A stretch of DNA of 64,000 bases from an uncultured Methanoregulaceae archaeon (GCA_963705255.1 OY970061.1:32001-96000); one strand, 5' to 3'. Numbered from the stretch's first letter, positions 11,549 to 57,225 are shown. The notes: a model not told the origin generated them from the letters alone. Numbers and translations: made by a program.

Positions 11549-11928
11549 GGCTTTGTAGAGATCCTATTTTATCCTGTAATTTGATTATATTCTCCGCTGG
11601 TTATGAGGGTGACCCCCTCTCTCCCCCACTGGGGGAGGCAGCGAAAGTCTGACGACCTTCTCGATTTCGTAGTCTGATGACTACTCAATCAGCCCAAGGG
11701 GGGTATCCCCTTGAATCTCTGAGAGGTCTTCAGACCTCGAAGAGGAGAAGGGAGGCAAGAGCCGACCTTCGACCCGTCTATTATTCCTCTCCTTATCTCA
11801 GTGGTTTTTCATCAACCTTCTGAGGGGCTATCGCAATATGGGGGGCCCCGGCGGCGGGGGGGTGGAGGCATCAGATGCCGCAGCCCCCAAGAGCGTCTGC
11901 AATGAAAACCAATGATTTCTGCAGAGCC
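11549..11928 (+). mobile_element. MITE-like repeat family A, copy A1 (short form, imperfect TIRs)
   Basis: Left end GGCTTTGTAGAGATC; right end reverse complement GGCTCTGCAGAAATC; poly-A flanks. Core is near-identical to 16240-16440 (reverse) and 43272-43430. Confidence 0.8.
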
Positions 11929-11951
11929 AAAAAAAGAATTTGGTTTTCCTC

Positions 11952-13244
11952 TCACATCGGTTTATAGTGACCCCATTTCTCCAGCGCTTCCCTCAGGGCT
12001 TGTGCGTTCCTGGCTTTCTCATCGAGCGGTATGCCCTCTTTCCAGGCCTCGATTGCCTGCATGGTAGCCTGTGCCCCGGCCCGTGTCCCTTTCGGGTGAC
12101 CGTGGATGCCACCGGACACGAGCAGAACCATTTCCGTCCCGTAAATATCGAGCACATCGGGCACAAGACCCGGATGCAGCCCACCGGACGAGACCGGGAA
12201 CGCAGTTTTGATCGTTCCCCAGTCCTGTTCAAGCAGCATGCCATCCACCGCCTTGATCTTCTTCTCCCGAAGGATATCCGCAAGCGCCATGGACTCCCTC
12301 CGCGAGCCGGTCAGTTTTCCTACTGCGGTCCCGGTATGGATTTGCGTGACACCTATCAGCCGCATGAGCTTTGCGAGGAACTGCATGGTTATCCCGTGCT
12401 TCCGGTTGCGGTCGAACGTGGCATGCATCGCGCGGTGCGCGTGGATCGCGAGGCCGAGATCGGAACAGTAGTCCCGCATCGTCATGACTCCTGCAGTGCC
12501 GGCAACGACGACGTCGATCATCGCGTAGTTCCAGCCGTTCTCGGCAAGCATGTCAGCCCGTTTCTTCATCGTCTCCACATCGGCGGTAATATTGAGGAAC
12601 GCAGACTTTTTCTCCCCGGTCTCTTTCTCGGCCACATCCCGCAGTTTCGTCATGTGCTTAACCCGGTCGTCGAACTGGTTGAACGAGGTGGAGGTCAGGT
12701 TTTCATCGTCTTTGACAAAATCAAAACCGCCCATCCAGGTCTCGTACCCGATCTTTGCGTGCTCCCGTGCCGAGAACCCGATCTTGGGCTTGGGCACCGC
12801 GCCGGTGAACGGCCGGTCGGTGATTCCCATCATCTTCCGGATCCCGTCGTTGCCGAAATGAGGGCCTTTGAAGTGTTTTATATAGGCAGGCGGGAGCGAG
12901 ACATCGATCAGCCTCAGGTTCTTCAGGGCTTTCATGCCAAAGATGTTCCCTGCGATCCCGCTCAGAAGCTGAACGGCATTCCCCTCTTCCCAGAGGGCCA
13001 GCGGGTATGCGATCTTTACCACGTTTCCTTCTATGTCAAACGCCGTTGCCTGCAGGGCTTTCATCCGGGGCGGCATGGTAAAGAGGGTGGTCCATGTCCC
13101 GGTCGAACTCTCGGACGCGATCCGCCCGGCTGCTTCCCTGCCGCTGATCCCTGCAGCGGGTTCAAAATAAAAGAGGCAGATGAGTTCGTTCTTTTCCGGC
13201 TCGTAATTCAGGTTGACAAATTCGTTGTACCAGTCAATTGCCAT
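11952..13244 (-). CDS. rbcL: Ribulose-1,5-bisphosphate carboxylase, archaeal form III
   Basis: ESSTGTW, PKPKIG, catalytic DFVKDDE, HAHRAMH, GKL, SGGLH, GGIHGHP. Confidence 0.93.
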   Translation of the reverse strand: MAIDWYNEFVNLNYEPEKNELICLFYFEPAAGISGREAAGRIASESSTGTWTTLFTMPPRMKALQATAFDIEGNVVKIAYPLALWEEGNAVQLLSGIAGNIFGMKALKNLRLIDVSLPPAYIKHFKGPHFGNDGIRKMMGITDRPFTGAVPKPKIGFSAREHAKIGYETWMGGFDFVKDDENLTSTSFNQFDDRVKHMTKLRDVAEKETGEKKSAFLNITADVETMKKRADMLAENGWNYAMIDVVVAGTAGVMTMRDYCSDLGLAIHAHRAMHATFDRNRKHGITMQFLAKLMRLIGVTQIHTGTAVGKLTGSRRESMALADILREKKIKAVDGMLLEQDWGTIKTAFPVSSGGLHPGLVPDVLDIYGTEMVLLVSGGIHGHPKGTRAGAQATMQAIEAWKEGIPLDEKARNAQALREALEKWGHYKPM

Positions 13245-13636
13245 AGATATTCCTGTACCTTTAAAGGCGATTCCGGGTAAAAAAAGGTGCTCAAGAGATG
13301 TTTGCCGCAAGGCCATGGTGGAACGAACCATGTATGATCACCGGGAGACGGACGTGCAGGATACCGTTCAACCTTTCGTCCGGAAACACCACTATTTCTG
13401 AAATGGACCCACGCCCCATCCCTGTTCATTCTCGCTATCGGTGATACTGCCCTGTTCATCGATTATGTGCAATGGGCCCGGGTCATGACGGCCTCGCAGC
13501 CTTGCGCAACCGATGCCGTCGCGGTTGCCAACCGGCTGACAGCAGGATCCCGACCAGGGAAAAACCGTGCATCTCAGGATCCCGCAAGTTTATGCGGGGG
13601 ATGGCGGACCGGTTCACGATAAAAATCCCGGCGCAC

Positions 13637-14943
13637 TCATTTTCCGGATTTCCCGAAACGACCACGGAGGGATCCCGAAATCGTTGAAAAAATGCCTGTT
13701 CGGGACGAGGGGGACTCTTCCTTCCCGAACGGCTCCGGCTCTGCCATGCCTGCAGATTCTTCCGGAGGGACAGGACCTGCCGGTACATCCGGCATAGCTT
13801 CGGGCAGGATTTCAGGATCCTGAATGACTGCAAGTGCCCCGGAACTTGGTATTTTTTGGATTGATCTCCCCGCCGGGGGCTCCGGATGATCCATGATGTC
13901 ACCGGAAGGTGGCTGAACCGGAACGAATGCAGGCTCTGCCATCACCGTTACCGGAACTTCCTGTCCGGCAGAAGTTGAAGGTCGGGCGGATTCATAACCG
14001 ACCTCCGGGGGCAGTGTACCCTCCGTGTGATCGATCGGTACTCCCTCATGGCCTGACTCCACGGAAGGTACAGCAACGTCTTCCCCCCCGGTGCGAACAT
14101 GAGTTTCCGTGGCTGCCGCCATCAGGGTGATCGCTCCAGGATCGGGTGTCACGGGATCTGCAGGGCCGGTTACACCGGATACGATTTCCGGTGCCTGCAG
14201 GATGATGCCAGGAGAAGCATTGTCAGGGGCACTCTCTCCAGCGGGCAGATCTCCCGGCCCGGTTGGAGCAGCTGGAACCGGTACCATGACTGGCTCGGGA
14301 GGTACCGTTGCTATCGGACGCGGGGCATCATCCATCTCCCGGGAAAGTTCACTGGCAAGACCGCTCTGTTCGGTTATCCGGTTTCCGATCACTGCGATGG
14401 AACTCATCAGTTCGTCACGGTTCGGCGCATCGCGATGAGCGAGATCGAGCTCCTTCTGCAGGGTGTCCCTGAGGCTGGCGTCCACATCAAGCGTTGTTTT
14501 GAGCGCAAAATATTCGGAAATTTTTTCCGGTCGGATCCCTGCAGCATGGAGCGCACCGCTCTCCTCCCTCGCCGTTTTCCTTCTCGAAAGCACCTTTTCA
14601 ATAGCCGCGACGAGCTGTTTCGGGTTCACCGGTTTTGAAATGAAGTCATCGATAGTAATCCGGTGAGTTCGGCCTCTTCCGGAGTGATCTTCTTTGCAGA
14701 GAACATGAGAACCGGTATGTCCCGGGTTCTGGGGTCTGCCTTGATCCGCTCCAGTGTCTCCCAACCGTTCATGGGTTCCATCATAATATCGAGAATGATC
14801 AGGTCCGGTGTCTCCCTGCTCAGGATGTCAAGACACTGCTCTCCACCGAAAGCGGCAAGGGGGCGATAGTATTTTTTCAGGATCAGGACGAGCCCTTCGA
14901 CAATCAGCCTCGTATCGTCAACGATAAGGATGGTATCGGTCAA
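13637..14943 (-). CDS. Response regulator receiver domain plus long Pro/Ala/Glu-rich tail (frameshift ~14665)
   Basis: ILIVDD..LDIMM..SAK in one frame; DDFISKP continues in the next. TTG start with GGAGG RBS. Confidence 0.75.
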
Positions 14944-15413
14944 AGGTATCCTCCTCCTCGTCCCGGACACACATACCTCTGACGCTTTTATCAGGGAGGG
15001 ATTTTGTCAGGGACAGAGTATCTCTTCATTTATGAAAACCGGTGAAGGGTCTCTCAATTCTCCAGTATATATTAGGTAAAATGAAATTTAAATGATCTTG
15101 TAAATGAATCCGGGTTCCTGAGGTAAAAAACCTTTATAGACCGGGTCAGCGAAGGGGACAGGGTTGAACACGTTCTCCAGACTTGTCAGGGAGGGTCGTC
15201 AGCCAGTCAATCTCGTCATTGCTCGACCGGTGGGGCACGGGCACTTTGGCAGGGCAGACAGAACAGAACAGTAAATCCGGATTTTTATACCCGGGTGTAC
15301 GACACAACTCCGGATGAAAGCCAAAGCCATGGACGCCCGGCAATCCCATCGGCCTTTTGCTTGAACGACCGGATACTTCATGTGATGCAAAGACCAGCTG
15401 ATATGGAATAATC

Positions 15414-16060
15414 ATGGGCGAGCGCAGACCTGAGGCCCCGGAAAAAGCCACGCGGCCGTCCTGACCGGCCCCCCGTTCTACCTCCCGGAATTCGAGGAGT
15501 CGTACCGGTACATTATCGATGAGTATGACATTGGCCCCCGGGACATTGCCATTTTTATTCCCTGTGCGGTCCGGAAACCCTACAGCCAGAGCCCGAGCCA
15601 CCAGCTGATCCGGATGATCATATCGCAGGTCCTCGAACCGTCACAATACCATATCGTCGTTTTCGGGACATGCGGGATCGTCCCTGCCGAGCTTGAGGAG
15701 ATGTACCCGTATGCCCATTACAGGTACATGCTCGGGAAATGCCAGGACGAATCGGTGAAGGAGGACTTCCTCAGGATCGAGACCGAACGGGTTGCGGGCT
15801 ATCTCGAAAAGACCCGGCATACCTATACCTACCGCATCGCGTACTGTATCGGGCTCTTCCGCGAGGCGCTGGTCCGGGGGTCAAGGAAAGCAGGGGTCGA
15901 TATCGATCTCCTCCTTCCCAGCCGGGACATGATCAACCGGATCATCGAGGAGGAGGAGTGCGCGTTCCAGGAGGGCAACCTCTCCATGGAAGATTACCTG
16001 GGGGAGTTCTGCGACGGGCTCATCCGGTTCCGGAATGATCACTATGGGATGGGGAAGTGA
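15414..16060 (+). CDS. DUF5591/archaeosine-synthase-like domain protein (frameshift in A-run ~15445)
   Basis: Manual translation upstream of the 15614 ORF gives IFIPCAVRKPYSQSPSH, then GIVPAELE..YP..HY. Confidence 0.75.
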
Positions 16061-16085
16061 GAGGGGGGTCCGGCAGATCAATATT

Positions 16086-16700
16086 CTGACGCTCTTGGGG
16101 ATGTCGACATGACAAAGTCATGGAGACAAGAGAAGAACGCATAAGCGTTCTTCGAATTTTCTGCAACCTGGGCACAGCGAAGATGCTCTCGAATCTTCTC
16201 GAGCCTGCCATGCCTTTGGCGATGGCAGCATCCCCCGAATTGCGATAGTCACTCAGAAGGTTGGCAGGAAATTCTTGAGAGAATGAGAGGAATAATAGAC
16301 GGGTCGAAGGTCGGCTCTTGCCTCCCTTCTCCTCTCCGAGGTCTGAAGACCTCTCAGAGATTCAAGGGGATACCCCCCTTGGGCTGATTGAGTGGTCATC
16401 AGATCACGAAATCGAGAAGATGCGTTAGCATCTTCGCTGCCCCCCCCTTCGGAGGAGACTGCTCTTCCCGAAGGGAAGAACAGGCTGGAGAATGTCGAAA
16501 GTCATCAGACTTGAGACAGGAGAAGACCGTAGGTCTTCGATCGAACTCGTCAGAGTTCTTCGATCTCCGAAGAGGTTCAACAGGACCTCGAGGATAAGAA
16601 GAACTCATCAGAGTTCTTCGATGTGAGAGAGAGGGGGTCACCCTCATGACATCTTCAAATGGTTTACAAAAAATGAACCGTGGAAGATTTCCACAGAGCA
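16086..16700 (-). mobile_element. MITE-like repeat family A, copy A2 (expanded with hairpin arrays)
   Basis: Reverse complement of the A1 scaffold. TIR-like TGCTCTGTGGAAATC at 16686-16700. Extra hairpin arrays at ~16100-16220 and 16455-16626. Confidence 0.8.
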
Positions 16701-16707
16701 GAAACCC

Positions 16708-17457
16708 TCACTCCTCCTCTCCCTCATCCTGCCCGGCCTTCTCCCCGATATCCCGGTCGAGACTCGACGGATCGATGTGCCACTCGCTCCTGCGGAGCAG
16801 CCCGTGCAGGGTGCTGGCCTCCCGGATCGTGAGGTTCGCCCTCCCGAGGATCCTGCGGATGAGGACCATCGTGTTCTCCCGCTTGAATGCCGGGTGATGG
16901 ATGGTGTCGAGATACCGGTCGATGTGGCGGTAGAGGTAACCCATCTCGGCAGGGGAAGCGAGCGCATAGGACGGGAGCGGGAGATCGGCCAGCTCGTAGC
17001 AGACGACCCCAACGGCATGAGAGAGGTTGAGGATCGGGTACTTCTCAGTAGTCGGGATGGTGCAGATCATGTCGCTGCGTTTGACCTCCTCGTTGCTGAG
17101 CCCCCAGTTCTCGCGTCCGAAGAGAATGGAGATGCGCCCGTCGGTATCCTTGATCCGCCCGCGGAGTTCTTTTGGCGAGTAGAATGGCATCCGCATGGAA
17201 TGGCAGACCGATTTGCTCACGGTCCCGGTGGTCGCGACCACGATGTTACTCCGGGCGAAGACGTCTTCGACGGTGCAGACCTCTGCATTCCTGAGCACGT
17301 CCTGCGCATGACTGGCCCGGGCCTTAGCCTCCTCGCCAAGCGGGCATGGATCGATGAGCACGAGCCGCAGGAACCCGAAATTTTTCATCACGCGTGCGGC
17401 AAAGCCCACGTTGCCTTCGTAGATGGGGGCAACGAGCACGATGTCAATGACGGGCAT
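16708..17457 (-). CDS. trmJ: tRNA methyltransferase, TrmJ/SpoU family
   Basis: GNVGFAARVMKNFG, FGRENWGLSNEE, YPILNLSHAV. Confidence 0.9.
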   Translation of the reverse strand: MPVIDIVLVAPIYEGNVGFAARVMKNFGFLRLVLIDPCPLGEEAKARASHAQDVLRNAEVCTVEDVFARSNIVVATTGTVSKSVCHSMRMPFYSPKELRGRIKDTDGRISILFGRENWGLSNEEVKRSDMICTIPTTEKYPILNLSHAVGVVCYELADLPLPSYALASPAEMGYLYRHIDRYLDTIHHPAFKRENTMVLIRRILGRANLTIREASTLHGLLRRSEWHIDPSSLDRDIGEKAGQDEGEEE

Positions 17458-17464
17458 AAAAAAA

Positions 17465-18154
17465 TTACTGGACTGCGTCGACCGTCGCTTTCAGGACGAC
17501 TGCGCCCTGGTCGTATACTGCATTGCCGACGACAATCGTGTCGGCATACCTGCTCATCTGCGCTGCTTTCTCCGCAGAGTTGATCCCGCCGCCATAGTAC
17601 AGCACCGACTTGTCAAGGGCCTCGGATACGGCTTTCACAACGGCCGGATCTCCGTAGATACCGCTGTATTCGATATACACAACAGGGAAATGGAAATAGT
17701 GATCCGCGACGCTTGCAAAGGCAGCGACCTCCTCAGCTTTGAGACTGCACATTGCCTTGGTCATACGGCCGACTGATGAGTCCGGGTTCAGGACAATATA
17801 AGCTTCCGGAACGATGAAGTCCCACGGGATTTTGCCTTTCTGCATCTGCACCCACTCCCGGTGCTTGCCGACGATCCATTGCACATCAGTAGTGTTCATG
17901 ACGCTCGGGACAAAAACAAAATCGATCCCCTGCATCAGCACGGCATCCGGTCCCGCAGGCTCCATGACGAGCGGAAGGTCATAGGCACCTACCTGTTTCT
18001 GGAGTGCGGAGAGGTTCTCCTGCGTGACATTGAGTGTTCCCGAGAGCATCAGGGCATCGGTACCGCTCGCGGCAATAGCATCAATATCCCCGGGCTTCAG
18101 CTGCTTGTCAGGATCGAGTTTGGTCACATGCACCCAGTCTTTCCATTTCATCAT
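17465..18154 (-). CDS. pcrB: Geranylgeranylglyceryl phosphate synthase (group I, PcrB-like)
   Basis: HVTKLDPDK, EAYIVLNPDS, YIEYSG, YGGGI, VVGNA. Confidence 0.9.
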   Translation of the reverse strand: MMKWKDWVHVTKLDPDKQLKPGDIDAIAASGTDALMLSGTLNVTQENLSALQKQVGAYDLPLVMEPAGPDAVLMQGIDFVFVPSVMNTTDVQWIVGKHREWVQMQKGKIPWDFIVPEAYIVLNPDSSVGRMTKAMCSLKAEEVAAFASVADHYFHFPVVYIEYSGIYGDPAVVKAVSEALDKSVLYYGGGINSAEKAAQMSRYADTIVVGNAVYDQGAVVLKATVDAVQ

Positions 18155-18328
18155 AATCACAGTACCTCTTGGCGTTCCATCCCCATAAACCGGTATCCTG
18201 CCCGGTGATCACACCCAACCTGCACGAGATTGTCTTGAATCAAATGCAGCAGTTCATCGGTTCCGGACAACCAATGGAACACTTTATATGAAAATAACCG
18301 TAATCGGGAACATACCCGTACGATATTC

Positions 18329-21582: not shown

Positions 21583-21592
21583 GATCTTCTCT

Positions 21593-34516: not shown

Positions 34517-34834
34517 ATGCCGGATTTCGCAGACGCTCTTTCTGAAGACCGGGATGGTACCCTGATCGCGATCGAAGTCACCGCCGGCGCCGGGAGCGAG
34601 GCATTTCCTGCAGGCTACAATGCATGGCGGAAGATGATCGGCTGCCGTGTTTCAGCACCCGCGCTGGAGGGGAGGGCCAACCGTGCCGTCATCGGGCTGG
34701 TATCAACAAAACTGGGTATCCCTTCTTCTTCGGTCAGCATCCTGTCGGGTGCGACCTCGTCCCGGAAACGGATCCTCGTGTCCGGCATGAGGAAAGAGGA
34801 TCTAATCAAACGGCTGAAGAGTTCCCGGATGTAG
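34517..34834 (+). CDS. DUF167/UPF0235 (YggU-like) protein
   Basis: RVSAPALEGRAN, ILSGATSSRK. Confidence 0.85.
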   Translation: MPDFADALSEDRDGTLIAIEVTAGAGSEAFPAGYNAWRKMIGCRVSAPALEGRANRAVIGLVSTKLGIPSSSVSILSGATSSRKRILVSGMRKEDLIKRLKSSRM

Positions 34835-34884
34835 GTTCTGTTTATTCGAGCCCGGAGCAGACCTGATTTTAAAAATCGAAAACG

Positions 34885-35120
34885 GGCTCTGGAGAAATGG
34901 ATGTGAACCAATCGGGTTCACGCTGAAACCATGAATTCGCTAAAATAGTCACATTGGGAGGGCCCCCCGCCTCAGGGCCTCTCCGAGGCACGGCGGGGCA
35001 AGGATATTTTTAGTCACTGATCCGCCGCGGGGGCGCCCCGCCGGGGGCGGCGGCGTTTATCATACTTGTGATGAAGAGGTAGCAACCTTATCAAATCTGA
35101 ATAATATGATTTTCATAAAA
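34885..35120 (+). mobile_element. MITE-like repeat family B, copy B1 (empty scaffold)
   Basis: Starts GGCTCTGGAGAAAT. Scaffold CCCCGCCTCAGGGCCTCTCCGAGGCACGGCGGGGCAAGG..GATCCGCCGCGGGGGCG is shared with 37949 and 56762. Confidence 0.78.
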
Positions 35121-35257
35121 AAAGTCAAAAACAACGTCCGGATGCTCTCGTCCGGCGATGACCCCGAACCTATCCTTTAAGTAATTCCAAACAATATATA
35201 ATTCATACCTATGATCAGGCATTACATCCATCGCATGATACATGGGGGTGCGTTTAC

Positions 35258-36487
35258 TTGTATTCACCGGATACTACCAAGTACCTTATTCACATCAGCC
35301 TCGCCGCAGAGGGGGTGGTCGAGAAACCCGACGTAGTCGGTGCCATATTCGGGCAGACTGAAGGGTTACTCGGCGAAGACCTCGACCTGCGGGATCTCCA
35401 GCGGACAGGGCGTGTGGGCAGAATCGACGTCCAGATTACGAGCAAGAAGGGCGAGACGAAGGGGGAGATCCTGATCTCCACCTCGCTCGACCGGGCAGAG
35501 ACGGCTATCCTTGCCGCATCGCTCGAGACGATCGACCGTGTCGGTCCCTGCGTAGCCCACGTGACCGTGGACTCGGTTGAGGACATAAGGGTTTCCAAGC
35601 GGAAGAAGATCGTCGAGCGGGCCAAGGAGATCCTGATCGACCGGTTTGATGACGGGACCATAGACAGCGACGAGCTGCTTGACGATGTCCGGCAGACCCT
35701 CCGGATAGAGAAGATCGGGTCCATCGGCGAAGAGCGGGCACCGGCCGGCCCGAACGTCCTCGAGTCAGACGCCATCATCATTGTCGAGGGAAGGGCGGAT
35801 GTCCTGAACCTGCTGAGGTATGGCATCAAGAACGCTGTTGCCGTGGAAGGGACCAACATCCCCAAGAGCGTCGTGGAGCTCTGCGAAAAGAAGACCACGA
35901 CCGCGTTCTTTGACGGGGACCGGGGTGGCGAGCTGATCCTCCGGGAACTCCTGCAGGTGGCTGATATCGATTTTGTCGCGTTTTCCCCGAAGGGCAAGAG
36001 TGTCGAGGACATGACCCGGAAGGAGGTCATCAAGACGCTCCGGAACAAGGTCCCCGTCGAATATGTCCGCGACCAGTACTTCGAGACCTCGGCCGAACTC
36101 CCGGGCGATCTCCGGACAACGCGTCCGTCCCTTGAAGATGAGGACGCCCACGAGCGGAAACGGCAGCCTGCAGGGGCCCGTCGCCCGCGTGACACATCGG
36201 GCGGCCCGCTGAGCCTCAGGGAACACATCGAAGACGTGAAAGGGCAGAACCTGGCACGTTTTCTCTCCGATGACCTGTCCGTGGTCAAAGAGTTGCGGTC
36301 AGACGAGGTGGAAAAAGCCATCGAGACGATCGATACTACGGCGACCGGGCTCGTCGTCGACCGTCCCGTGGACCAGAAATTCCTCGACCGCCTGGTCTGG
36401 AAAGGCCTCTCCTATGTTGCGGCAAAGGATTTCAAGGGGATCATCAAGCGCCCCACGGCAATCCGCCTGCTGAAGATGGGGTCGTGA
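35258..36487 (+). CDS. dnaG: Archaeal DnaG-like primase (exosome-associated)
   Basis: [38 protein letters not shown]. Confidence 0.95.
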
Positions 36488-36547
36488 CGGCCCCACACAA
36501 ATTTATTTATGCTGCACCCGTCCATGTTACTGTCTGGATGTGGACGC

Positions 36548-36829
36548 ATGCACAAAGAGGAACTGATCAACCTTCACCAGATGCTCTCTGAGGTCAAGGA
36601 CTATTTTGAGGAGATCAACCCGGACCTGAAGTTCTCCCAGTACAGTGCACTGAAGATCTCCCCCTCCCAGCAGCACAAGAGCAAGATGGAGCACAAGTAT
36701 GCCATCTTCGTCCTCGGGACTGAGATTGCCAACGCGATGAAGGACGTGGACTATACGTCCTCGAGCAGGATATCGGCACGGATGAAGGAACTTGCCGACA
36801 AGACGCTCAAGGAAATGGATACGGAATAA
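36548..36829 (+). CDS. UPF0058 family protein
   Basis: MHKEELINLHQ..ISP..QHKSKMEHKYAIFVL. Confidence 0.88.
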   Translation: MHKEELINLHQMLSEVKDYFEEINPDLKFSQYSALKISPSQQHKSKMEHKYAIFVLGTEIANAMKDVDYTSSSRISARMKELADKTLKEMDTE

Positions 36830-37004
36830 TCTCTTTTTGTCCCTGGCCGGAACACCGTACTTCCGAAAACAGATTTAATACTCCCGAATGGTAGGCCCAA
36901 TGTCACTTTGCGTACCATCAGGCACGAGGATGCACGGGTTGTGGTTTGGATCAATCAAACGGCTGACTTAACGGGACCGATGTAAAAAATCTCCTGAACG
37001 AACT

Positions 37005-37605
37005 CTATTTTTTTCCGAAACCATAATGTTCCCGTAAAAATTTCCTGACCTTTTCAGACTCCAGATATCTCTCATCAAGCGTGTCAATAATTTTCTCGAT
37101 TATGTTCACCTGATCTGAGATGAGAGCACTTGTATTATCATCAAGCGTTGCAGTATCCAGCAAAATAGCCTGCAAGGGATTTCTGATCTTGTCATTGAGG
37201 ATCAACAACTGTTCCATATTGTGCTCAATCTGCTGGAACGCCTCCCTCTTCAATAGTTCGAGCTGCGTTTTACTGGCCCTGGAACTTTCAGCAAAATGCG
37301 AGATCACAATACCAAGAGAGACAAAGATGAAAAACCATGCAGTGTGAACTGCGATTATCCTCACAGAAAATGTTCCGAACACGTACACGAGTACGATGTA
37401 AACCCAGCCAAGGGCGATCGTGATCAGGATCCCCCTGCGGGGAAAAGCATATGCAGTCAGGAGCACCGGAACAAGGAAAAAATAGGGAAATATGTCATTG
37501 ATGCCATGGGACAGGTCTGAATACAGCAGTCAGTATTACTCCAAGTGAAGTTGCGATGATGAGATATATCCAGATGGTATTTTCATGGATGAAATTATGG
37601 GGCAT
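37005..37605 (-). CDS. Membrane sensor-like protein with degenerate HisKA helix (indels in 5' part)
   Basis: TM helices (AYAFPRRG), IEHNMEQL.ILNDKIRNPL. Paralog of the 7731 ORF without PAS. Confidence 0.65.
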
Positions 37606-37948
37606 TTCTCTCTCACCCTGTCTCATGGCTTGACAATCTACCATTCCTGGTTGTCAGAAACATCTCAAATTGTGGAGTAAGACATCCCCAATATGAATGC
37701 AGCCGAATGAAATGTCACCCGCAGCCCGGTATGCCGGGCCCTGACAGAGGTCTGCCATGGGCGGCATGAAGCGGCAGGTGATGGTACCTGCGCTTATCTC
37801 TAAAATTAAAAAGCGAAACAATATATTATTGTCTATTTGAAATTTTTAATATAGTTGCACTCTTTCCAGATACCGGAAGAACCGGTTCCACATTTATCGG
37901 ACTTTGTAACTACGAACGGTCGGAGACCGTTTAAAATAGTGAATAAAA

Positions 37949-38455
37949 TGCTCTGGAGAAACGGACATGAACCAATAACGTTCACTCCGGAACCATGAAA
38001 ATTGTTCAGTTACGAGAGCTCCCCGCCTCAGGGCCTCTCCGAAGAGTCAATCGTCGCGTCAGCGAGGATTGACTGGAGAAGAATCCTCATGGATTCTTCG
38101 ACTGCTTCATCCTGTACGGATGAAGCAGAGGAAGTTTGGAAAAACTTCCTCTTGCCGAGTCTCGGGAAAGATGAGGCACGGCGGGCAAGGAAGTTGATCC
38201 GCCGCGGGGGCGAGTCGAAAATTATCTATCCGAGAATTTTCTTCAGCCAGCCCCGACCATCTGGTCATGGCTGGCTCCCCGTTGAGGGCAGCGCCGAAGG
38301 CTGTGGAGAAGTGATAACTTCGAGTTCCGAAGAGGTTCATCGGAACCTAGAGGATGAAAAGAACTCGTCAGAGTTCTTCGAGTGCGGCGGCGTTCATCGC
38401 AATGGTAAAAGAGTGACAATCCGCCGTGAGATCTGAATAATACGATTTTCATAGA
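37949..38455 (+). mobile_element. MITE-like repeat family B, copy B2 (three filled slots)
   Basis: B1 scaffold interrupted by hairpin arrays at 38043-38174, ~38213-38276 and ~38290-38385. Confidence 0.8.
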
Positions 38456-38509
38456 AAACGCTTCCCGGATTGAGATACGTTCAAATCCAATAAACAACGA
38501 TTCCCGTTC

Positions 38510-39465: not shown

Positions 39466-39745
39466 AGAGGGGGGTTGGGGGTCTACCCCCCCACTGTTTT
39501 ATTTTTGGGATGGGGGTGACCCCCCCACCCCTCACTCAGTGAGAGGGGTAGCTACCCCCCCTTTGCTGGACATGTGCAGGTTGTGCTTCGCATGGAGTTA
39601 TCGTCGGAGTAGAGATTTTTCGGCCCGTTATTGGTGGAGGGGGTACCCACCCCTCATGTGCCCGGAGGGGTACCCTACCCCCCTACCATTGGGTCCGGAA
39701 GAGGGGGGGGTCCCCTCCCCCACCCCTCCCTCAGCGGGAGGGTAG
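39466..39745. repeat. G/C-tract palindromic repeat cluster (family C)
   Basis: Serial GGGGGT-x-ACCCCC hairpins (GGGGGTCTACCCCC, GGGGGTGACCCCC, GGGGTAGCTACCCC, GGGGTACCC). Confidence 0.65.
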
Positions 39746-39997
39746 TAATCAACTAGTGAGTAGGAAATTTCCCATGAAATTAGTGATGGACGTCGCCGCC
39801 CCTTGGGGACGCCTCTGCTTCGGTTCAGTGACTTTTCATGGTGGGATACAGGTAAGTGAGTAGCGCAAAACCCGACGAGGCGTTTTGCGCGTAGGGCATC
39901 GCTGCGGTCAGATATTTTTTTTAAAGGTAACAATATGTAAGTAAGTTCAAGAAGAGTCACATCAGATCCGTATCTCAGGACAGAGGAATGGATACCC

Positions 39998-41877: not shown

Positions 41878-41963
41878 TTTGATTGTTCATAACGACCTGA
41901 TACACTTTTATCCCTTTCCCCCACTCCGATTTTTCATTGGTTATCGAACACCAATAAAATCTC

Positions 41964-42167
41964 TCACTCCACCTTCTCCTTCGCGTGTTTCTTCCAGACC
42001 TGCTCCCGGTACACGGGCCGCTGTTGTAGGTGCAGAAGGGATCAGCTTGCAGGTGTAGCATAGTGGATGCAGCACCGCTGGACCCGCTCGAGATCGTAGT
42101 TGAACTTGTCCAGGAAGTGCATGACGCCGATGAAGAGCGCGTTCCAGTGGAACTCCCTGAGGGCGTC
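41964..42167 (-). pseudogene. Diverged duplicate of the 3' end of tes
   Basis: Aligns to 45002-45211 (DALREFHWNALFIG..CCIHYA..FCTYNSG..VWKKHAKE*), with small deletions. Confidence 0.9.
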
Positions 42168-42921: not shown

Positions 42922-43070
42922 AAATATTATCGTGATCCGGGAACAGGAAATATGATATCCTGAATTCGTTTTACTCAGTTGCAGAGAAAACTCCTTTGAA
43001 TAACTGAGCACCCGTTCAGCCGGTACCTTTCTCCAGAAAGCCTGTTCTGGAGTCTCGCATTCTTCAACAG

Positions 43071-43465
43071 TTATGAGTGTGACCCCATCTCTCATGTCGA
43101 AGAACCCTGATGAGTTCTTCTTATCCTTTGGTCCTGATGAACCTCTTCGAAAATCGGAGAGGTTTCTCAAAACCTCGACGAGGAGAAGGGAGGCGTGAGC
43201 CGACCTTCGACGTGATCGAAGAACCTGCCATTCTTCTTCAGCCTGCTCTTCCCTTCAAGAACAGCAGTCTCCCCAGTGGGGGAGGCAGCGAAGATGCTAA
43301 CGCATCTTCTCGATTTCGTGATCAGATGACCACTCAATCAGCCCAAGGGGAGCATCCCCTTGAATCTCTGAGAGGTCTTCAGACCTCGAAGAGGAGAAGG
43401 GAGGCAAGAGCCGACCTTCGACCCCTCTTTTTATCCCCCTTCTTTTCAAAAGATTTTTGCTTCAA
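43071..43465 (+). mobile_element. MITE-like repeat family A, copy A3 (expanded, ends truncated)
   Basis: A1 scaffold with a 178-bp hairpin array at 43094-43271. Confidence 0.8.
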
Positions 43466-44860: not shown

Positions 44861-45001
44861 GGGAGATTAAATGTCTCTTCATGCCAATAAAAGACAGAAA
44901 AATTGACCGGGAAGATCCGGCTCCACGCCGTACTGTTCCCTTTCAGCGTTATCCGCCCTGTCTCCCCTGGCCCTTTCCTTTAATTCAAAAAAAGTAACTT
45001 C

Positions 45002-46468
45002 TCACTCTCCCTTCTCCTTCGCGTGCTTCTTCCAGACCTGCTCCCGGTATACGGGGCCGCTGTTGTACGTGCAGAAGGGGATCAGTTTGCCGTCGGGCGT
45101 CGCATAGTGGATGCAGCACCGCTGGACCCGCTCGATATCATAGTTATACTTGTCCATGAAGTGCATGATGCCGATGAAGAGCGCGTTCCAGTGGAACTCC
45201 CTGAGCGCGTCGAAGTTCTGGCCGATCAGGGTCTTGCCGATCATCTTCCAGAACTCCGTGGTATTGCCCTGCTCCCCCTTCTTTACGGAGTCGTGCATGC
45301 TCTTGACGCCTTCGAGAAGGGCCTTGTACTTGTTGATGGTCCCGCCCTTCCTGAGCGTCTCGGCCATGTGCTCGATCGACTCGAAGAAGCTGTCTACGTC
45401 CACCATCCGGTTGATCGGGACGATCCCGTGCTCCTGGACAAAGACGTAGGTGGCAGCACCGCAGTGCTGGTGGGCGGTGAACCGGACCTGCGGCCGCCCG
45501 GTGTAGGCCTCGACCAGGTCGGAGAACGGGAGGACGCAGGGGACCGGGTAGAAATCGTCCTTCCTGAGGACGCCGCCCATCTGCTCCTCGATATCCCCGA
45601 GGACATCGGGGATGGTGATCCGGCCTTTCTGGAGGTCGTCATCGCTCGCTGCGCCGGTAAAAGCGATCGGCTGGAAGTTCACACCGCGTACAACCGAGAT
45701 ATGGTCTACGGCAAACTTGATGATATCGCCGAGCTCGTTGTCGTTCCTCCCGCGGATCACTGTCGGCACGAGCACGATCCCGAGCCCCACCTTTTTGAGG
45801 TTCTCGATCGCTTTTTCATGGATCCTTAAGTAGGGGTTTGTCTGCAGGGTCACGCCGTCGAAATGGAGGTAGACCGTGTTGAGCCCTGCGTCCTTGAGCT
45901 GCTGAGCGAGAGCGGGGTCTTTTGCCAGCTTGACGCCGTTCGTCGCGATCTGCACCTGGGGGAACCCCATTGCTTTTGCTTTTCTGATGATCTCGGGGAG
46001 GTCGTCCCGCATGGTGGGCTCGCCACCTGAGAACTGGACGGCCGGGGCAGGGATGGGCTTCTCGTCCCTGAGCACCTGCATCATCCCGACGATCTCGTCA
46101 AAGCTTGGCTCGTAGATGAACCCGCAGGCCCGGGCGTTTGCAAAACAGAAGTCGCAGTCCAGGTTGCAGCGGTTGGTGAGATCGATATTTGCCAGCAGGG
46201 TCTGGGAGTGGTGGTTGTTGCAGATCCCGCAGGCGGTGGGACAACTTCCCGGCGGCGCCGTATTCTGGGGGTTTGCTATGCCGTTCCCCACGGCATCGTA
46301 TTCCTGGAAGCGGTGATACATCCGGGCATCCGACCAGTAGAGGTGCCTGAAGTTTCCATGCACCGGGCATGTCCTTTTCAGCCAGATCTTCCCCTCTTCT
46401 TCGACAATCTCCGCATCCAGTACGGAATTACATGTAGGGCAAAGACTTCGGGTTCTTTTTATCAGCAT
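45002..46468 (-). CDS. tes: Tetraether lipid synthase (GDGT/macrocyclic archaeol synthase), radical SAM
   Basis: N-terminal CPTC..CPVH, CPTACGICNNH, CNLDCDFC SAM motif, C-terminal HQHC..CC..FCTYN. Confidence 0.88.
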   Translation of the reverse strand: MLIKRTRSLCPTCNSVLDAEIVEEEGKIWLKRTCPVHGNFRHLYWSDARMYHRFQEYDAVGNGIANPQNTAPPGSCPTACGICNNHHSQTLLANIDLTNRCNLDCDFCFANARACGFIYEPSFDEIVGMMQVLRDEKPIPAPAVQFSGGEPTMRDDLPEIIRKAKAMGFPQVQIATNGVKLAKDPALAQQLKDAGLNTVYLHFDGVTLQTNPYLRIHEKAIENLKKVGLGIVLVPTVIRGRNDNELGDIIKFAVDHISVVRGVNFQPIAFTGAASDDDLQKGRITIPDVLGDIEEQMGGVLRKDDFYPVPCVLPFSDLVEAYTGRPQVRFTAHQHCGAATYVFVQEHGIVPINRMVDVDSFFESIEHMAETLRKGGTINKYKALLEGVKSMHDSVKKGEQGNTTEFWKMIGKTLIGQNFDALREFHWNALFIGIMHFMDKYNYDIERVQRCCIHYATPDGKLIPFCTYNSGPVYREQVWKKHAKEKGE

Positions 46469-52173: not shown

Positions 52174-52610
52174 TACATTCGCCTGAATCTGCGGTATTTG
52201 CAACAGTTTGTTTTAACCGGGTAAATTGGTATTATGTATTATGTCAGTTTCATGGTAATGATATACCTTCCAACCGGGAAGATGAAACCGGGATAAACCG
52301 GACATGGTTACAAAGGGTTTAAAAAATACCTGATATAATGAAGAGACGTATCCGGGACGCAAGGGAATTGTCCCATGTTAACTATCCTCCGGCAAAGAAA
52401 ATTACATCAGAGTAGTCAGAATATCTCATCCTGAACCGGTCCGGAACGGAAACGAGGTTTAAGGATGTCCTGGGGATCTTTTTCAGCACGGTTGAAGTGG
52501 ATGAAATATATCCGGAGGGCAACGAAAAACAACCGGTGTTTGGGTCATTTATATCCATCAACGAACATGATGGAAAAATATACCCTTCTATGAACACAGG
52601 GCAAAAAATC

Positions 52611-52850
52611 TTACTTCTCTTCCACGAAGGTTTTCAGCCGGTCGATCAGGTATTTTTCGACCTGCTCCATCACATCCCGTTTTCCCCGGAACGCCAGCAG
52701 TTCCCGCTCGTCGCCTTCCATGTTGGCAAACTTGATCTTTTCCTTGCGATCGACGACCTTGACATCGAACTTCTTGGTCACGTCAATGATCATCTTCTGG
52801 GGCACCCCGGGAGGGATAACGATATCAAAGAGCTGTTCTTCCTCTGCCAT
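52611..52850 (-). CDS. Small hypothetical protein downstream of marker 14
   Basis: 79-aa ORF (FDIVIPPGVP..LLAFRG) with a GGTG RBS. Confidence 0.75.
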   Translation of the reverse strand: MAEEEQLFDIVIPPGVPQKMIIDVTKKFDVKVVDRKEKIKFANMEGDERELLAFRGKRDVMEQVEKYLIDRLKTFVEEK

Positions 52851-52865
52851 CTTCTTACACCTGAC

Positions 52866-54363
52866 TCATTTACCTATCTTGATCCGCCGGCTCATAATAC
52901 ATGGGCCCCCGCGTACGCCCCCAATCGGGTTTTTGGGCTTCCCGAGCGAGTTCATGCACCGTCCCATGAGCGCCGCGCCCCGGGCAAGCCCGTCGTCTAC
53001 GAAAACTATGTGGTCGACAGGGTCGTCAAAGAGCTTGCGCCCGGTGATCCCCTCGAGGATATAGTCGGGCTTCCGGCCCGAGATCGCTGCCCTGCCGGTA
53101 AACCCGATCGAAGAGTTCCTCAGCACGATATGCTGTTCGACCGCTACATCAATTAACCGGAGTGCCATCTTCGCACAGACACGGTCAACCACTTCATTAA
53201 GGGTCGCAAGGTTGTATCTTTTATGGATCTCCGACCCGATTGCGACAAGTTTGTCAAGTTCGCTGCTGTTCACCCCGCAGTCACACCCGATCATTGCGAT
53301 CCCTGATTCCTTGGCAATCCGTGCATTGACCGGCACCCGGCCGAACCGGTCACGCTCCGGGGTACAATGCAGATATCGATATGCTTATGGCAGCGTTCCA
53401 CGTACTCGTCCACGACGTTCCGGTTGCCGCCGCGGAAGAGCCCGCCGCTCACGGAATGTTCGCCGAAGATATCGAGTGCTGTCCCCGTCCGCCCGTCCAC
53501 GAGCCCGGTTCCCCGGACAATTGCGTCAGGTATCGCACCTGCAAGCCCGCAGAAATTCCCGACGGTCTTTGCGAACGGGTTGGGAGCGTCAGGAGGCACA
53601 TCGCTCGTGATCCGGCCGTCCAGCGTCGTGCCAAAATCGATCGTGACGCAGGGGTTGCGGAAATCGACCGGTGTCCATTTCGCCCCTTCCTTGATCCCTG
53701 CCATCGCGAGCTCGCCCTCCATCTCGTTTGCCACCATCTCGACGCCCGTGGAGCCGAGGGGGGGATCACTCCCGCCACGGCGCCGATAAAGACCACCTTG
53801 TCGGCAAAGCTGAACGGCTGGAGTTTCTGCGACTGGTTCTCCTTCGACATCGGGGGCGTCATTTTACGGGGGGGCACACCGGCAATGAGGCACCCGTTGG
53901 CAAGGGCGATCACAAAGTCACCCACCTGGTCCGGGGACTCCATCTCGGCAACGACGCCGGTGCTCCGGACAACAAAGTCAAGTTCCTTTACGACGTCAAG
54001 GTGCGCCTCTTTGTGGCACTGGAGCAACGTATCCCTGACGAGATCGGTTACCGCCTCCCGCGTCAGCTCGGTCCCGTCGAGTGTTGCGCCGAAGATCGTC
54101 TCGCCGGGTTTCGGGGGGCGGATGTCCCGGCTCATGCTCACCGTCTTGTTGATGACATAGGACATACCGGTTTCGAGATTTACCCCGGTGAGGATACACT
54201 TCGTCGTGGTGTTTCCCATCTCCACTGAAGCCACAATAAAATAGGGTTTGTTCTTGTATTCGGGGATCTGCATCCCGGCGCCATGGATGATGGAAGGCGG
54301 AGGAGGGCTTTCAACGATATGCGGTTTGGGTTTTATGAAGCGGGAAAAAAAATTGGCGCACAT
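52866..54363 (-). CDS. Methanogenesis marker protein 14 (frameshifts ~53760 and ~53360)
   Basis: ASVEMGNTTTKC, VVRSTGVVA, NEMEGEL, DFGTTLDGR, CGLAGA, GCDCG.N, DDGLARGAA spread over three ORFs. Confidence 0.88.
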
Positions 54364-54445
54364 ATACTCCGATTCTTCGTTTTTGTCTCCTTATAATTTT
54401 CTATTTGTCCGGAGATGGCACGGGGTGTGAAAACCTTCATCTGAT

Positions 54446-56707
54446 ATGACAAGAGAGATGCTCCTTATGAACGATGCGCTGGAGGCCTACCTGTCCGGGC
54501 TCTCGTTTTCAGCGCAGGGAAAACACGGGGAGGCCCTCCTCTCGTTTGAGCACTCGCTGGCGCTGGACCCCGGAAACGCAGGTGCGTGGATCGGCAGGGG
54601 GCTTGCGCTCGCTTATCTCGGCCAGTACGAGCCGTGCGTCCAGGCATTCGACCGGGCGATCGCCCTGAATGAAAATGACGAGATCACCTGGTACAACCGG
54701 GGAATTGCCTTCCATATCCTGAAACATGACGAGGAAGCCATCCTCTCGTTCGACCGCGTGCTCCGGATCGCCCCCTCCCATACCCTTGCATGGGCGGGAA
54801 AAGCCCGGTCCTACGCCGCCCTTGAACATTACCGGGAGGCCATCGATGCCTATGACCGGTCGCTGGGCTATGGCACCGACGAGGTGAACTCGTGGACGGG
54901 GAAAGCCAACGCATACTTCGAACTGGACCAGTACGGGGAGGCACTCGCCTCGTTTGAGAAGGCGCTGGCCCTCGATGCCGGGCACACCCATTCCCTGAAC
55001 GGAAGGGCAGCGGTCCTGATGGAACTGGGGAGGATCGACGAATCGATCGGGACCTTTGAGAAGGTGCTGGCCCTCGATCCCGATAATGTCACTGCCCTGG
55101 CCGGCAGGGCCCAGGGAATGATCGTCTGCAGACGGTACGATACCGCTCTCGGGGACCTGGAACATGCGATACGGGTCGACGGACAGGACGCCAAGTCCTG
55201 GTACCTCCAGGGAGTCGCGCTCGGGTTATCCGGCAGAACGGACGAGGCATTCCACGCGTTTGGCCAGGCCCTCGCATTCAACCCGAATATAGCCCTCGTA
55301 TGGTACACCCAGGACGATCTCATCCATTTCATCGTCCGGGACCAGGACGAGATCAGGGCTTTCGGGCGCTCGCTGCCCATTGACCCCAACGTGAGTGAGG
55401 TCTGGTCGAGCCATGCCTACGGGCTCTCGCGGTCCGGAAGGTATGAAGAGTCCCTGCAGGAATATGAGAAGGAACTTGGCCTTGCCCCCGACTCGACCCT
55501 GCTCTGGTACAACAAAGGAGTTTCCCTCGACAGCCTCGGGCGGTACGAGGATGCCCTCCGCGCCTACGAAATGGCGGTCCTGAAAAATCCGGATCTGGCT
55601 GCCGCATGGTACAATAAAGCGCTGGTGCATGTGTATCTCGGGGAATACAGCAAGGCGCTCGAGTCCTGTGACCGGGCACTTGCAATCGACCAGAATTCGG
55701 CAGCCACCTGGTTCAACAAGGGAATCGTTTTCGGGTTACAGGGGAAGTACGAGATGGCGCTTGCTGCGTTCAACCGGGCGCTTTCGATCGCCCCGAAGAT
55801 GGCTTCGGCCTGGTTCAACCGCGGGGTAGCATTCCGCAGGCTCGGCCGGCATGCCGAAGCCGCGGAGTCGTACGACCGGGCGATCTCGTTTGACCGCGGT
55901 CTCATGACGGCATGGTTCAACAAGTCCTCGGAACTTGTCCGGACGGGAGCGTGGAAAGAAGCCCTGCAGGCCATCGGGATTGCACTCTCCATCCGTCAGA
56001 ACGATGCAGTGAGCTGGTACGTGAAAGGATTTGCCCATGCCAACCTGAAACAGGGCCGCGAAGCACAAGCGGCCCTGGACAAGGCGCGGGCGATCGATAC
56101 GAAACTGTACCTTGTCCAGTACCCGTTCGGCGGCGTCCTCTATCTCTCCCGTACCTACCATCCCGTATCCGCCGATGATGCCCGGAGCCGTGCCCCCGGA
56201 CAGGGCGATGCCCGGTCCTGGTACGAGAAGGGGGTGACCCTCTACCGCGGTTACCATTACGAGGAAGCTGTTGGTGCTGTCGACCGGGCCCTTGCGCTCG
56301 ATGCCGGGACCGCCCGGTCGTGGGTTCTCAGGGGGCTCGCGCTCCATAAACTCGGGAGGTACGAAGAGTCCCTCGTCTCGCTCGGCCATGCCCTTGCATC
56401 CGATCCGGAGAACTACAAGACATGGAATATCCGGGGGCTAGTCCATAAAAAACTCCATGACCTGCCATCCGCGCTTGCGGATTTCGATCATGCACTGGCC
56501 CTCAACCCGGGAATTGCCGGCAGCTGGCTGAACCGGGGAGTTATCCTCCTCCAGCTGAACCGTGACCGTGAAGCGGTCGATTCCCTTGAGCGTGCAGTCT
56601 CCCTGGGTTCCGGGGACAGGCGGGCCCTCAACGCCCTCGCGTATGCAAAGAAGAGGGTTGCAGCACCTGCGGGCCGGAGCGTGCAGAAAAAGGGATTGCC
56701 CGGGTGA
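54446..56707 (+). CDS. Large tetratricopeptide-repeat protein
   Basis: Many TPR units (AWYNKG..L..LGRYEEA...FDRAL..DP). Confidence 0.92.
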   Translation: MTREMLLMNDALEAYLSGLSFSAQGKHGEALLSFEHSLALDPGNAGAWIGRGLALAYLGQYEPCVQAFDRAIALNENDEITWYNRGIAFHILKHDEEAILSFDRVLRIAPSHTLAWAGKARSYAALEHYREAIDAYDRSLGYGTDEVNSWTGKANAYFELDQYGEALASFEKALALDAGHTHSLNGRAAVLMELGRIDESIGTFEKVLALDPDNVTALAGRAQGMIVCRRYDTALGDLEHAIRVDGQDAKSWYLQGVALGLSGRTDEAFHAFGQALAFNPNIALVWYTQDDLIHFIVRDQDEIRAFGRSLPIDPNVSEVWSSHAYGLSRSGRYEESLQEYEKELGLAPDSTLLWYNKGVSLDSLGRYEDALRAYEMAVLKNPDLAAAWYNKALVHVYLGEYSKALESCDRALAIDQNSAATWFNKGIVFGLQGKYEMALAAFNRALSIAPKMASAWFNRGVAFRRLGRHAEAAESYDRAISFDRGLMTAWFNKSSELVRTGAWKEALQAIGIALSIRQNDAVSWYVKGFAHANLKQGREAQAALDKARAIDTKLYLVQYPFGGVLYLSRTYHPVSADDARSRAPGQGDARSWYEKGVTLYRGYHYEEAVGAVDRALALDAGTARSWVLRGLALHKLGRYEESLVSLGHALASDPENYKTWNIRGLVHKKLHDLPSALADFDHALALNPGIAGSWLNRGVILLQLNRDREAVDSLERAVSLGSGDRRALNALAYAKKRVAAPAGRSVQKKGLPG

Positions 56708-56761
56708 CTGGTTAAGACCTGAGCAAGACTGGGTGAGGACGGGAAAAATTACTAATTAAAC

Positions 56762-57225
56762 ATTATGAGGGTTCCCCGCCTCAGGGCCTCTCCGAGGAGT
56801 CAATCGTCGCGCCAGCGAGGATTGACTGGAGAAGAATCCGCAAGGATTCTTCGACTTGCTTCATCCTGTACGGATGAAGCAGAGGAAGTTTGGAAAAACT
56901 TCCTCTTGCTGAATCTTGTAAAAGATGAGGCACGGCGGGGCAAGGAAGTTGAACCGCCGCTGGGTTAAGTTGAAAATTCTCTGTCAGAGAATTTTCTTCA
57001 GCCCGCCCTGACTATCGGGTCACGGCTGGCATCCCGTTGGGGATAATCCCACGAATGCATACTCCTCGGGAAAGTAATACAGCACTATCCCTGAGCGCAG
57101 GGAAGGTCGGGCGACATACCAGCCTGAAGGCTGGTGTGGTGCGCAGAAGATTTCCAGCGGAAATCTTCGAGGGGACAGGCACTGTCCCCTCCGTCATCAT
57201 TCATGCGTGATATTTTTTTCTAATA
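56762..57225 (+). mobile_element. MITE-like repeat family B, copy B3 (filled slots)
   Basis: Scaffold and slots 1-2 match B2; slot 3 (~57045-57190) holds different hairpins. Confidence 0.8.

Follow-up and report, generated by a model that had tools for sequence, protein, structure and literature searches.

An abundant and unusually dynamic family of miniature IS5-type elements and mosaic palindrome arrays in a Methanoregulaceae archaeon

What kind of repeat keeps a conserved scaffold and, at fixed positions within it, is empty in one copy and filled with an array of short hairpins in the next? The question is raised by a 64,000-nt stretch of DNA from an uncultured Methanoregulaceae archaeon (GCA_963705255.1 OY970061.1:32001-96000; referred to as the window, with positions counted from its first letter). 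An original prediction, made from the sequence of the window alone, described six intergenic copies in two families, A (A1 to A3) and B (B1 to B3), and proposed a candidate new system of exchangeable hairpin cassettes, either moved by a trans-acting enzyme or forming a structured nucleic acid. The present analysis finds a real, abundant and unusually dynamic archaeal combination of miniature inverted-repeat transposable elements (MITEs) with arrays like the bacterial interspersed mosaic elements (BIMEs), lacking a RAYT (the transposase tied to repetitive extragenic palindromes, REPs), and no new class of genetic system. Calling it a new system was an overstatement, the family being MITEs plus BIME-like arrays. 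Judging from the sequence comparisons set out below, it is probably selfish DNA remodelled by host recombination and replication, and neither a dedicated cassette system nor a structured-RNA gene.

The six copies are present and intergenic as described, and the similarity among them is far above chance. A repeat finder aligned A1 with A2 (11657-11844 and 16232-16419, 188 nt, 90%, inverted), A2 with A3 (16289-16447 and 43278-43436, 159 nt, 94%), A1 with A3 (11657-11787 and 43306-43436, 92%) and B1 with B2 (34886-34935 and 37950-37999, 82%). B2 and B3 agree at 93% over 38010-38103 and 56763-56856 and at 94% over the next 83 nt, giving 93-94% across 38010-38185 and 56763-56939. The predicted reuse of modules between families was also recovered by the repeat finder (16558-16621 and 38318-38381, 86%). 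The host genome is a single contig of 2,600,650 bp with 54.6% G+C, in which the six copies used as queries gave 136 blastn clusters; iterated searches converged on 183 intervals totalling 39,035 nt, or 1.5% of the genome. When the 180 loci of at least 40 nt were classed by scaffold-motif matching, 48 had A motifs, 43 had B motifs, eight had both and four had the end motif only, and 77 were scaffold-free hairpin arrays (9.3 kb in total, 23 of them at least 150 nt long). Random deletion would have given short copies with scattered breakpoints; the BLAST alignment breakpoints instead pile up at sharp positions, from which it follows that the family is built of modules.

The fixed slots of the original prediction are found genome-wide in both families, with conserved scaffolds and array positions exact to the base. 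In B scaffolds the slots lie in two GC-rich hairpin cores, H1 and H2, which in B1 have the form CCCCGCC..GCCTC-TCC-GAGGC..GGCGGGG and CCGCCGC..GCGGCGG, respectively. The H1 slot was empty or uninterrupted in 12 of the 21 B cores read and filled in nine, and in all nine the array starts directly after CTCTCCGA(G/A)G and ends before (C)ACGGCGGGG. For example, B2 and B3 carry short-hairpin arrays of 132-133 nt bounded exactly by ..CTCTCCGA(G/A)G and CACGGCGGG, and the H2 of B2 holds a further array of 171 nt. Five copies have an H2 slot of 11 nt (CCCCGCCGGGG), and in six it measures 49, 110, 118, 118, 167 and 171 nt. Among A copies, five have 7 nt between the left block and the CCCC..GGGG hairpin and the others 68, 68, 179 or 221 nt; between the middle and right blocks the distances are 52, 52, 143-145 (three copies), 155 and 196 nt. 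Elsewhere in the genus the H1 slot is empty in 81 of 85 copies and filled in four. This marks the empty hairpin as the basal form and makes slot filling mostly a trait of the host lineage.

With a hairpin defined by at least seven Watson-Crick pairs, the family loci contain 593 hairpins, against 146 in length-matched random genomic DNA. The unit is 18-30 nt long and typically reads GAAG-variable stem-C(A/G)TCAG-stem-CTTC, preceded by ..GGA and followed by GAC..; the commonest flanks are AGGA and TGGA on the 5' side and GACT and GACC on the 3' side. The 114 units with an RTCA loop fall into 61 distinct sequences, nearly all perfectly paired, and the loop is oriented as ATCA/GTCA in 79 and as TGAT/TGAC in 35. 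These are short extragenic palindromes at high copy number and in mosaic arrays, as in REP/BIME populations, with 130 of 133 loci outside called open reading frames (ORFs). The tetranucleotide end tags GTAG and CGTC, searched for among 577 flanked hairpins, were found at two and 12 of them, CGTC being otherwise inside the loop motif C(A/G)TCAG. A reading of the CUGAUGA loops as hammerhead or K-loop motifs, judged by eye, was dropped, the motif lying in a closed loop of 4-8 nt with no Rfam ribozyme match. Downstream of a B copy at 1668909 (minus strand), at about 1668400-1668600 of host contig C1, a 49-nt unit, GAAGAACCATAAGGTTCTTCGCTGTAGTGAATCGGGGATGAACCCACAA, stands in tandem in four or more identical copies, every one of which includes a hairpin of the family; because it has no variable spacers, this array does not resemble clustered regularly interspaced short palindromic repeats (CRISPR).

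The scaffolds are MITEs of IS5-family elements, and among the MITE features tested only a resident transposase is missing. This assignment follows from IS5-type ends, 8-bp target duplications and polymorphism bounded by terminal inverted repeats (TIRs). The scaffold ends (GGCTCTGNAGAAAT) match the TIRs of IS5-family insertion sequences, ~1 kb long and widespread in the genus, and these IS5/IS903-like termini agree with the original suggestion of an IS903-type transposase. The query was a degenerate transposase remnant adjoining a scaffold-type end in another genome, G004, the N-terminal part of which was searched across the genus and matched in 67 of 108 genomes, with no match in the host genome. 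Intact copies elsewhere in the genus are ~1005 bp long with ends GGCTCTGTAGAAAT.. and GGCTCTGTAGAATTCC.., and each has a single ORF of 302-329 amino acids that matches PF01609; the three proteins tested on NF033579 (IS5 family, cut-off 140) all scored 195-212 bits. Perfect 8-bp target duplications were present in four of the five copies whose flanks were compared. The 8-bp duplication and the GGC ends would presumably fit the ISH1 or IS903 subgroups of the IS5 family. Another subgroup is more distant. It is bounded by TGCTCTGTAGAAAACCTC and ..AAATCATTT or TGCTCTGTAGAAATCATTT, which resemble the left and right ends of A, and is very abundant in the genome G039, where it makes up most of the 54 matches to NF033579.

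The host genome contains 33 inverted end-motif pairs 120-900 nt apart, some of which are chance pairs; the flanking 8-mers agree at all eight positions in six of them and at seven of eight in seven. The end motif itself, G(G)CTYTGNRGAAAT, is found at both ends of A1 and at the left ends of A2, B1 and B2; the right ends of A2, A3 and B lack it. The elements are short, non-coding, multi-copy and dispersed over the 183 intervals, and three ORFs inside them gave no significant Pfam match, the sole hit (E = 0.048) falling below the cut-off. No intact IS5-type copy was found in the host, whose genome has three sub-threshold fragments matching NF033579 and two matching PF01609. The elements are thus non-autonomous, as had been supposed: four transposase families were searched, every match in the genome lies outside the window, and intact IS5-family transposases are found only elsewhere in the genus. 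A trans-acting enzyme had also been postulated, and for the scaffold ends one can be named, namely an ordinary IS5-family DDE transposase that is intact in other genomes of the genus and reduced to fragments in the host.

Gain, loss and swapping of hairpin modules at fixed positions, which the six copies had suggested, can be followed at orthologous loci of genomes that are ~95% identical. The closest genome compared, G037, is ~95-97% identical to the host in genes, and its 370 kb contig C4 was used. For 22 orthologous repeat loci with both flanks found, the length differs by at least 50 nt at 18 and by 10-49 nt at two, and is the same at the remaining two; among 84 repeat-free intergenic controls 11 differ by at least 50 nt and 38 are equal; differences of at least 50 nt thus affect 82% of repeat loci versus 13% of control spacers. 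Two TIR-bounded elements of the host are absent from G037, one of 732 nt that combines an inverted B body with the right half of A (622310-623041) and a 272-nt A element (693093-693364). A hairpin-rich unit of 193 nt (C1, 620124-620423) is tandemly duplicated in the host and single in G037, and at genome position 547711 units are replaced one-for-one by variants with different, still perfectly paired stems.

The copies in the window show the same turnover. A1 is absent from the counterpart spacer in G037, which has unrelated DNA with two free-standing hairpin clusters. A2 lacks blocks of 52 nt and 54 nt there, and the array in its right slot is exchanged wholesale for another between near-identical flanks. 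The H2 slot of B1, an empty tip in the host, carries an array of ~110 nt in G037 and in the metagenome strain X5. At B2, G037 has lost 38164-38384 (a 221-nt deletion removing half of H1 and half of H2), with only CGG at the junction, and in strain X5 position 38182 is joined to 38385 through 29 nt that correspond to the emptied H2 slot. At B3, the slot 1 array is replaced wholesale in G037 between near-identical flanks, and 57103-57233 is missing. The incoming array is 98% identical to host arrays at 115434 and 112237 and 96% identical to another locus of G037, and this identity with non-orthologous host arrays points to ectopic gene conversion via the conserved core flanks. In more distant comparisons, B1 is absent from the same spacer in three genomes (G055, G044 and G041) and B3 from that in G049, and in at least 10 other genomes of the genus just 62-109 nt separate the two genes on either side of B2. 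Between those genes in the host, B2 is accompanied by ~1.1 kb (36830-37948), a lineage-specific insertion, in which a 153-aa ORF (37005-37466, minus strand) had no Pfam match. The mosaic palindrome arrays, the extreme length polymorphism and the maintained palindromy together support the REP/BIME-like logic that had been proposed.

The family is patchily distributed, as is typical of selfish repeats. B2 matched in 16 of 18 genomes of the same genus and in none of 12 genomes of other genera in the order. With at most two mismatches allowed, a 22-nt H1 core was counted 38 times in the host and 35 times in G037; four further genus members have 14, 10, 9 and 7 copies, and several genus genomes rated 97-99% complete have none. 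Across the order the core turned up in 13 genomes out of 201, almost all belonging to one family, and the backwards-pattern control gave none. Exact core matches in a species collection came almost solely from records titled Methanoregula or Methanoregulaceae. One record labelled Nitrospirota (L126, a 2.35 Mb contig) has an exact H1 core and seemed to indicate spread across domains; we rejected this because the flanks are Methanoregula-like at 77-80% and the record is apparently mislabelled. Another, labelled Dehalococcoidia (L060, a 4.2 kb contig), also has an exact H1 core, with the match limited to the 43-nt core.

These observations can be brought together in a mechanism with two layers. 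In the first, MITE scaffolds would have been spread by an IS5-family transposase acting in trans, and because the host keeps only fragments of this enzyme, its copies are probably now stranded. The second layer would consist of REP-like palindromic units in BIME-like arrays, standing alone or nested inside the GC-rich closing hairpins of the scaffolds. The apparent cassette exchange is most likely the work of ordinary host processes, with no dedicated enzyme. Ectopic gene conversion among dispersed copies could use the near-invariant cores as homology arms and would at the same time homogenise them, unit number would change by duplication and deletion, of which tandem duplication is directly seen, and the perfect stems are probably maintained by hairpin-templated (quasipalindrome) correction and not by selection acting on individual units. 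The elements would survive mainly at gene 3' ends, where the harm they do is small.

Several observations weigh against this selfish-DNA reading. The right end of B is not an inverted repeat of its left end. The two cleanest presence/absence cases have no clean 8-bp duplication, so that deletion or recombinational replacement, instead of insertion, may underlie some of the polymorphisms. Several indel junctions have little or no microhomology, so that simple slippage is not enough for all events. Across species the H1 and H2 cores hardly vary, in contrast to arms and a linker that can barely be aligned; concerted evolution can account for the conserved cores, and selection for a function could do so as well. 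A G·T to A·C count of 21 to 2 in a genus alignment of H2 hints at a strand-specific single-stranded structure, and folding slightly favours the reference strand in 83 of 125 loci (mean difference 2.9 kcal/mol). The preference for gene ends (56 convergent, 53 tandem and 21 divergent locations and three inside ORFs among 133 loci, against 375, 1015 and 383 convergent, tandem and divergent spacers genome-wide) is based on our own crude ORF picks. The missing duplications at the two cleanest polymorphisms, the microhomology-free junctions and the conservation of H1 and H2 are not explained by the proposed mechanism.

The first alternative is a dedicated enzyme, with the hairpin units themselves being miniature mobile elements placed at hairpin-defined sites by a non-HUH trans-acting activity, a true archaeal analogue of RAYT-driven REP/BIME formation. 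The insertion points, base-exact in all nine filled H1 cores, are what such an enzyme would produce, and so are the conserved unit borders, the presence of units in both orientations, the many stand-alone arrays and the junctions without microhomology; the rarity of slot filling outside the host lineage would look as if an activity had been switched on there. PF01797, the profile of HUH Y1/RAYT proteins, has no match in the host genome or in G037 and matches in 5 of 81 genus genomes. Integrase-type profiles gave no match reaching the cut-off in the host genome, which has two TnpB-like genes, both outside the window. Comparison of the genome with itself found no IS-like long repeats and no multi-copy transposase-like gene. 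Of the long self-repeats considered as hidden insertion sequences, those that were translated proved to be paralogous ordinary genes, and a candidate autonomous element at 406615-412081 was set aside, its ORF translations resembling an ammonium transporter, a polyphosphate kinase and ThiI (no family search was made). It also speaks against such an enzyme that loci have whole arrays in common, that tandem duplication is directly seen and that GTAG and CGTC tags are so scarce. The trans-acting enzyme predicted for the hairpin modules was therefore not found, and we think it unlikely that small hairpins are inserted or copied into hairpin-defined sites, the slots of MITE cores among them, by a non-HUH activity of this Methanoregula lineage, with hairpin-templated repair keeping the stems perfect. 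If they were, this archaeal lineage would have a way of making BIME-like arrays that does not depend on RAYT, and would show base-exact cassette insertion into DNA hairpins as a natural system.

The second alternative gives the cores a function, as structured RNA or strand-specific single-stranded DNA. They might act as 3'-end stabilisers, terminator-like elements or small RNAs, the arrays being tolerated expansion segments and the whole a mobile element co-opted by the host. Besides the near-invariance of H1 and H2 between variable linkers, the pairing of H2 argues for it: in a 42-sequence genus alignment 94.8% of cells are paired and four pairs show double changes, and of 500 shuffles none reached the double-change counts, the further pair types or the covariation score, and two reached the percentage paired, although the copies are related and such controls overstate the signal. 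The genomes G079 and G112 both have GCCCCTCCGGGGC, an H1 tip with compensated changes; pair statistics for H1 came from loci retrieved with an exact 5'-half pattern, are thus biased, and were not used. Enrichment at convergent gene ends also speaks for it, and the excess of G·T and the better folding of the reference strand, mentioned above, point the same way. The G·T to A·C ratio, however, is reversed in the host together with contig C4 of G037 (1 to 7 for H1 and 2 to 7 for H2), and no strand bias is seen over all hairpins (47 to 58) or in the 114 RTCA-loop units (5 to 3). Since strand asymmetry gives conflicting answers, in folding as in the G·T and A·C counts, and the strand and fold tests are not independent, we counted them for neither side. 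In tandem spacers the elements are oriented without bias (29 versus 24), Rfam 15 gave no match at the gathering score in the whole window and none at E ≤ 1 in 34800-38500 and 11500-16760, several complete or near-complete genomes of the genus have no copies, and the deletion at B2 in G037 takes out half of both cores. The structured nucleic acid offered in the original prediction is thus not borne out by the Rfam search, the orientation, the G·U asymmetry or the patchy distribution, and a role of this kind seems to us improbable.

Finally, that the palindromes are double-stranded host sites for a chromatin or topology protein, for replication or for restriction-related functions, with MITEs as mere carriers, is very unlikely: the almost perfectly paired stems without strand bias are what duplex-level palindromes would show, and bacterial REP/BIMEs bind gyrase, IHF and Pol I according to excerpts of one study (PMC2817692), but the stems vary freely and yet stay paired, which a sequence-specific duplex binder would not favour, the distribution in the genus is patchy and no candidate protein was identified.

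The copies in the window, on the selfish-DNA reading favoured here, range from a complete MITE to a degenerate remnant (Table 1). The remnant, a reversed B-like copy, is a seventh member that was missing from the first list.

Table 1. Repeat copies in the window, with their ends and slots
Copy	Position	Strand	Description	Internal layout
A1	11549-11928	+	Complete A-type MITE, near-minimal; TIRs 11549-11563 and 11914-11928	TIR GGCTTTGTAGAGATC at 11549 and GGCTCTGCAGAAATC (reverse) ending at 11928; first slot empty, 7 nt separating ..CCCCCTCTCTC from GGGGGAGGCAGC
A2	16086-16700	-	A-type, slots filled (179 nt, 143 nt); left TIR-like end TGCTCTGTGGAAATC; no right TIR	
A3	43040-43465	+	A-type; left arm degenerate, internally deleted; right side truncated at glycosyltransferase stop codon	
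B1	34885-35120	+	Minimal B element; left TIR GGCTCTGGAGAAAT	H1 34965-34998, slot between 34988 and 34989 empty; H2 35022-35053, with 11-nt empty tip
B2	37949-38455	+	B element, both slots filled	H1 5' half 38021-38044, array 38045-38176; H2 5' half 38199-38212, array 38213-38383
B3	56762-57225	+	B element without left arm	H1 5' half 56774-56797, slot array 56798-56930, H1 3' half 56931-56940
B-like remnant	39766-39850	-	Degenerate; right-end motif TTTCCCATGAAA, then H2-like GC-rich stretch; read by eye	

The 8-mers flanking A1 match at five of eight positions. A1 directly adjoins a gene for a RuBisCO large-subunit homologue (PF00016 and PF02788; 11952-13331, minus strand), and in G037 ~3.6 kb of extra DNA (C4, 333976-337602) lies beside the A1 locus, between uvrB and a small ORF upstream of the A1 position. 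The other genes flanking the copies are ordinary (uvrB, SpoU, a DnaG-like Toprim protein, ornithine cyclodeaminase and ArgG). One contig from an independent metagenome is identical to the window over 43039-43380, at A3, with 0 differences. Direct repeats at 41962-42167 and 45000-45211 (56 nt at 93% and 116 nt at 92%), ~3.04 kb apart, flank a tetratricopeptide repeat (TPR) gene, A3 and the glycosyltransferase gene; since the side with the TPR gene and A3 is not collinear in G037, the block between the two repeats may be rearranged. The hairpin GCGCAAAACCCGACGAGGCGTTTTGCGC stands beside the B-like remnant (39766-39905). In the bin 39587-39897 contig depth is raised in the metagenome runs X1 and X3 and, less strongly, in X5, and the very high summed contig depth at 39875-39877 (117-556) indicates that a short piece is multi-copy in those samples.

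How does the family compare with known systems? With IS5-family MITEs it shares small size, lack of coding capacity, multiple copies, identical TIRs, 8-bp duplications and TIR-bounded presence/absence polymorphism. It differs in having no intact cognate transposase, in the many copies (B type, A2 and A3) with one recognisable end, and in an interior unrelated to the insertion sequence, with conserved GC-rich hairpin cores and variable palindrome arrays. The BOX elements of Streptococcus pneumoniae, boxA-boxB(n)-boxC, are an analogue of the design with fixed ends and a variable middle. They likewise have fixed end modules around a variable number of internal hairpin-forming modules, but BOX repeats one module type, whereas the present family mixes many unrelated modules and swaps whole arrays.

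The bacterial REP/BIMEs, in the portions of Nunvar 2010 (PMC2817692) available to us, are extragenic palindromes with more than 100 copies, mosaic arrays and extreme length polymorphism between strains, their palindromy being kept by complementary changes and gene ends being preferred. On that partial account the present family is alike in copy level, mosaic arrays, length polymorphism, kept palindromy and gene-end preference; unlike them, its host is archaeal with no RAYT/Y1, the GTAG head is practically absent (2 of 577), the arrays are often nested in MITE scaffolds, and the units mostly have one orientation and do not strictly alternate. Membership among REPs fails on two defining features, the RAYT and the GTAG/CGTC end tag. 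A superfamily of CGTC-tagged REPs, with CGTC at one unit end and families in five bacterial phyla, is described in the accessible part of Di Nocera 2013 (PMC3733652). As far as that part goes, these are likewise palindromic repeats without a dedicated transposase, and they differ from the present family, in which just 12 of 577 hairpins have CGTC at an end and the tetranucleotide otherwise lies within the loop motif. A literature search on Methanoregula MITEs and palindromic repeats, archaeal MITEs and methanogen REPs, with supplements outside its scope, found no description of the present repeats.

Arrays of the REP/BIME type have been described in bacteria, where they are tied to RAYT transposases, as far as the excerpts consulted state. 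Here a comparable palindrome population makes up 1.5% of a methanogen genome without a RAYT, much of it nested in IS5-type MITEs. The family is a warning for Methanoregula assembly and binning, since short-read contigs in the metagenome contig sets break at repeat loci, and its loci are sensitive strain markers for methanogens of peat and sediment. It also offers a handle on how palindromic repeats arise and stay perfect without a dedicated enzyme.

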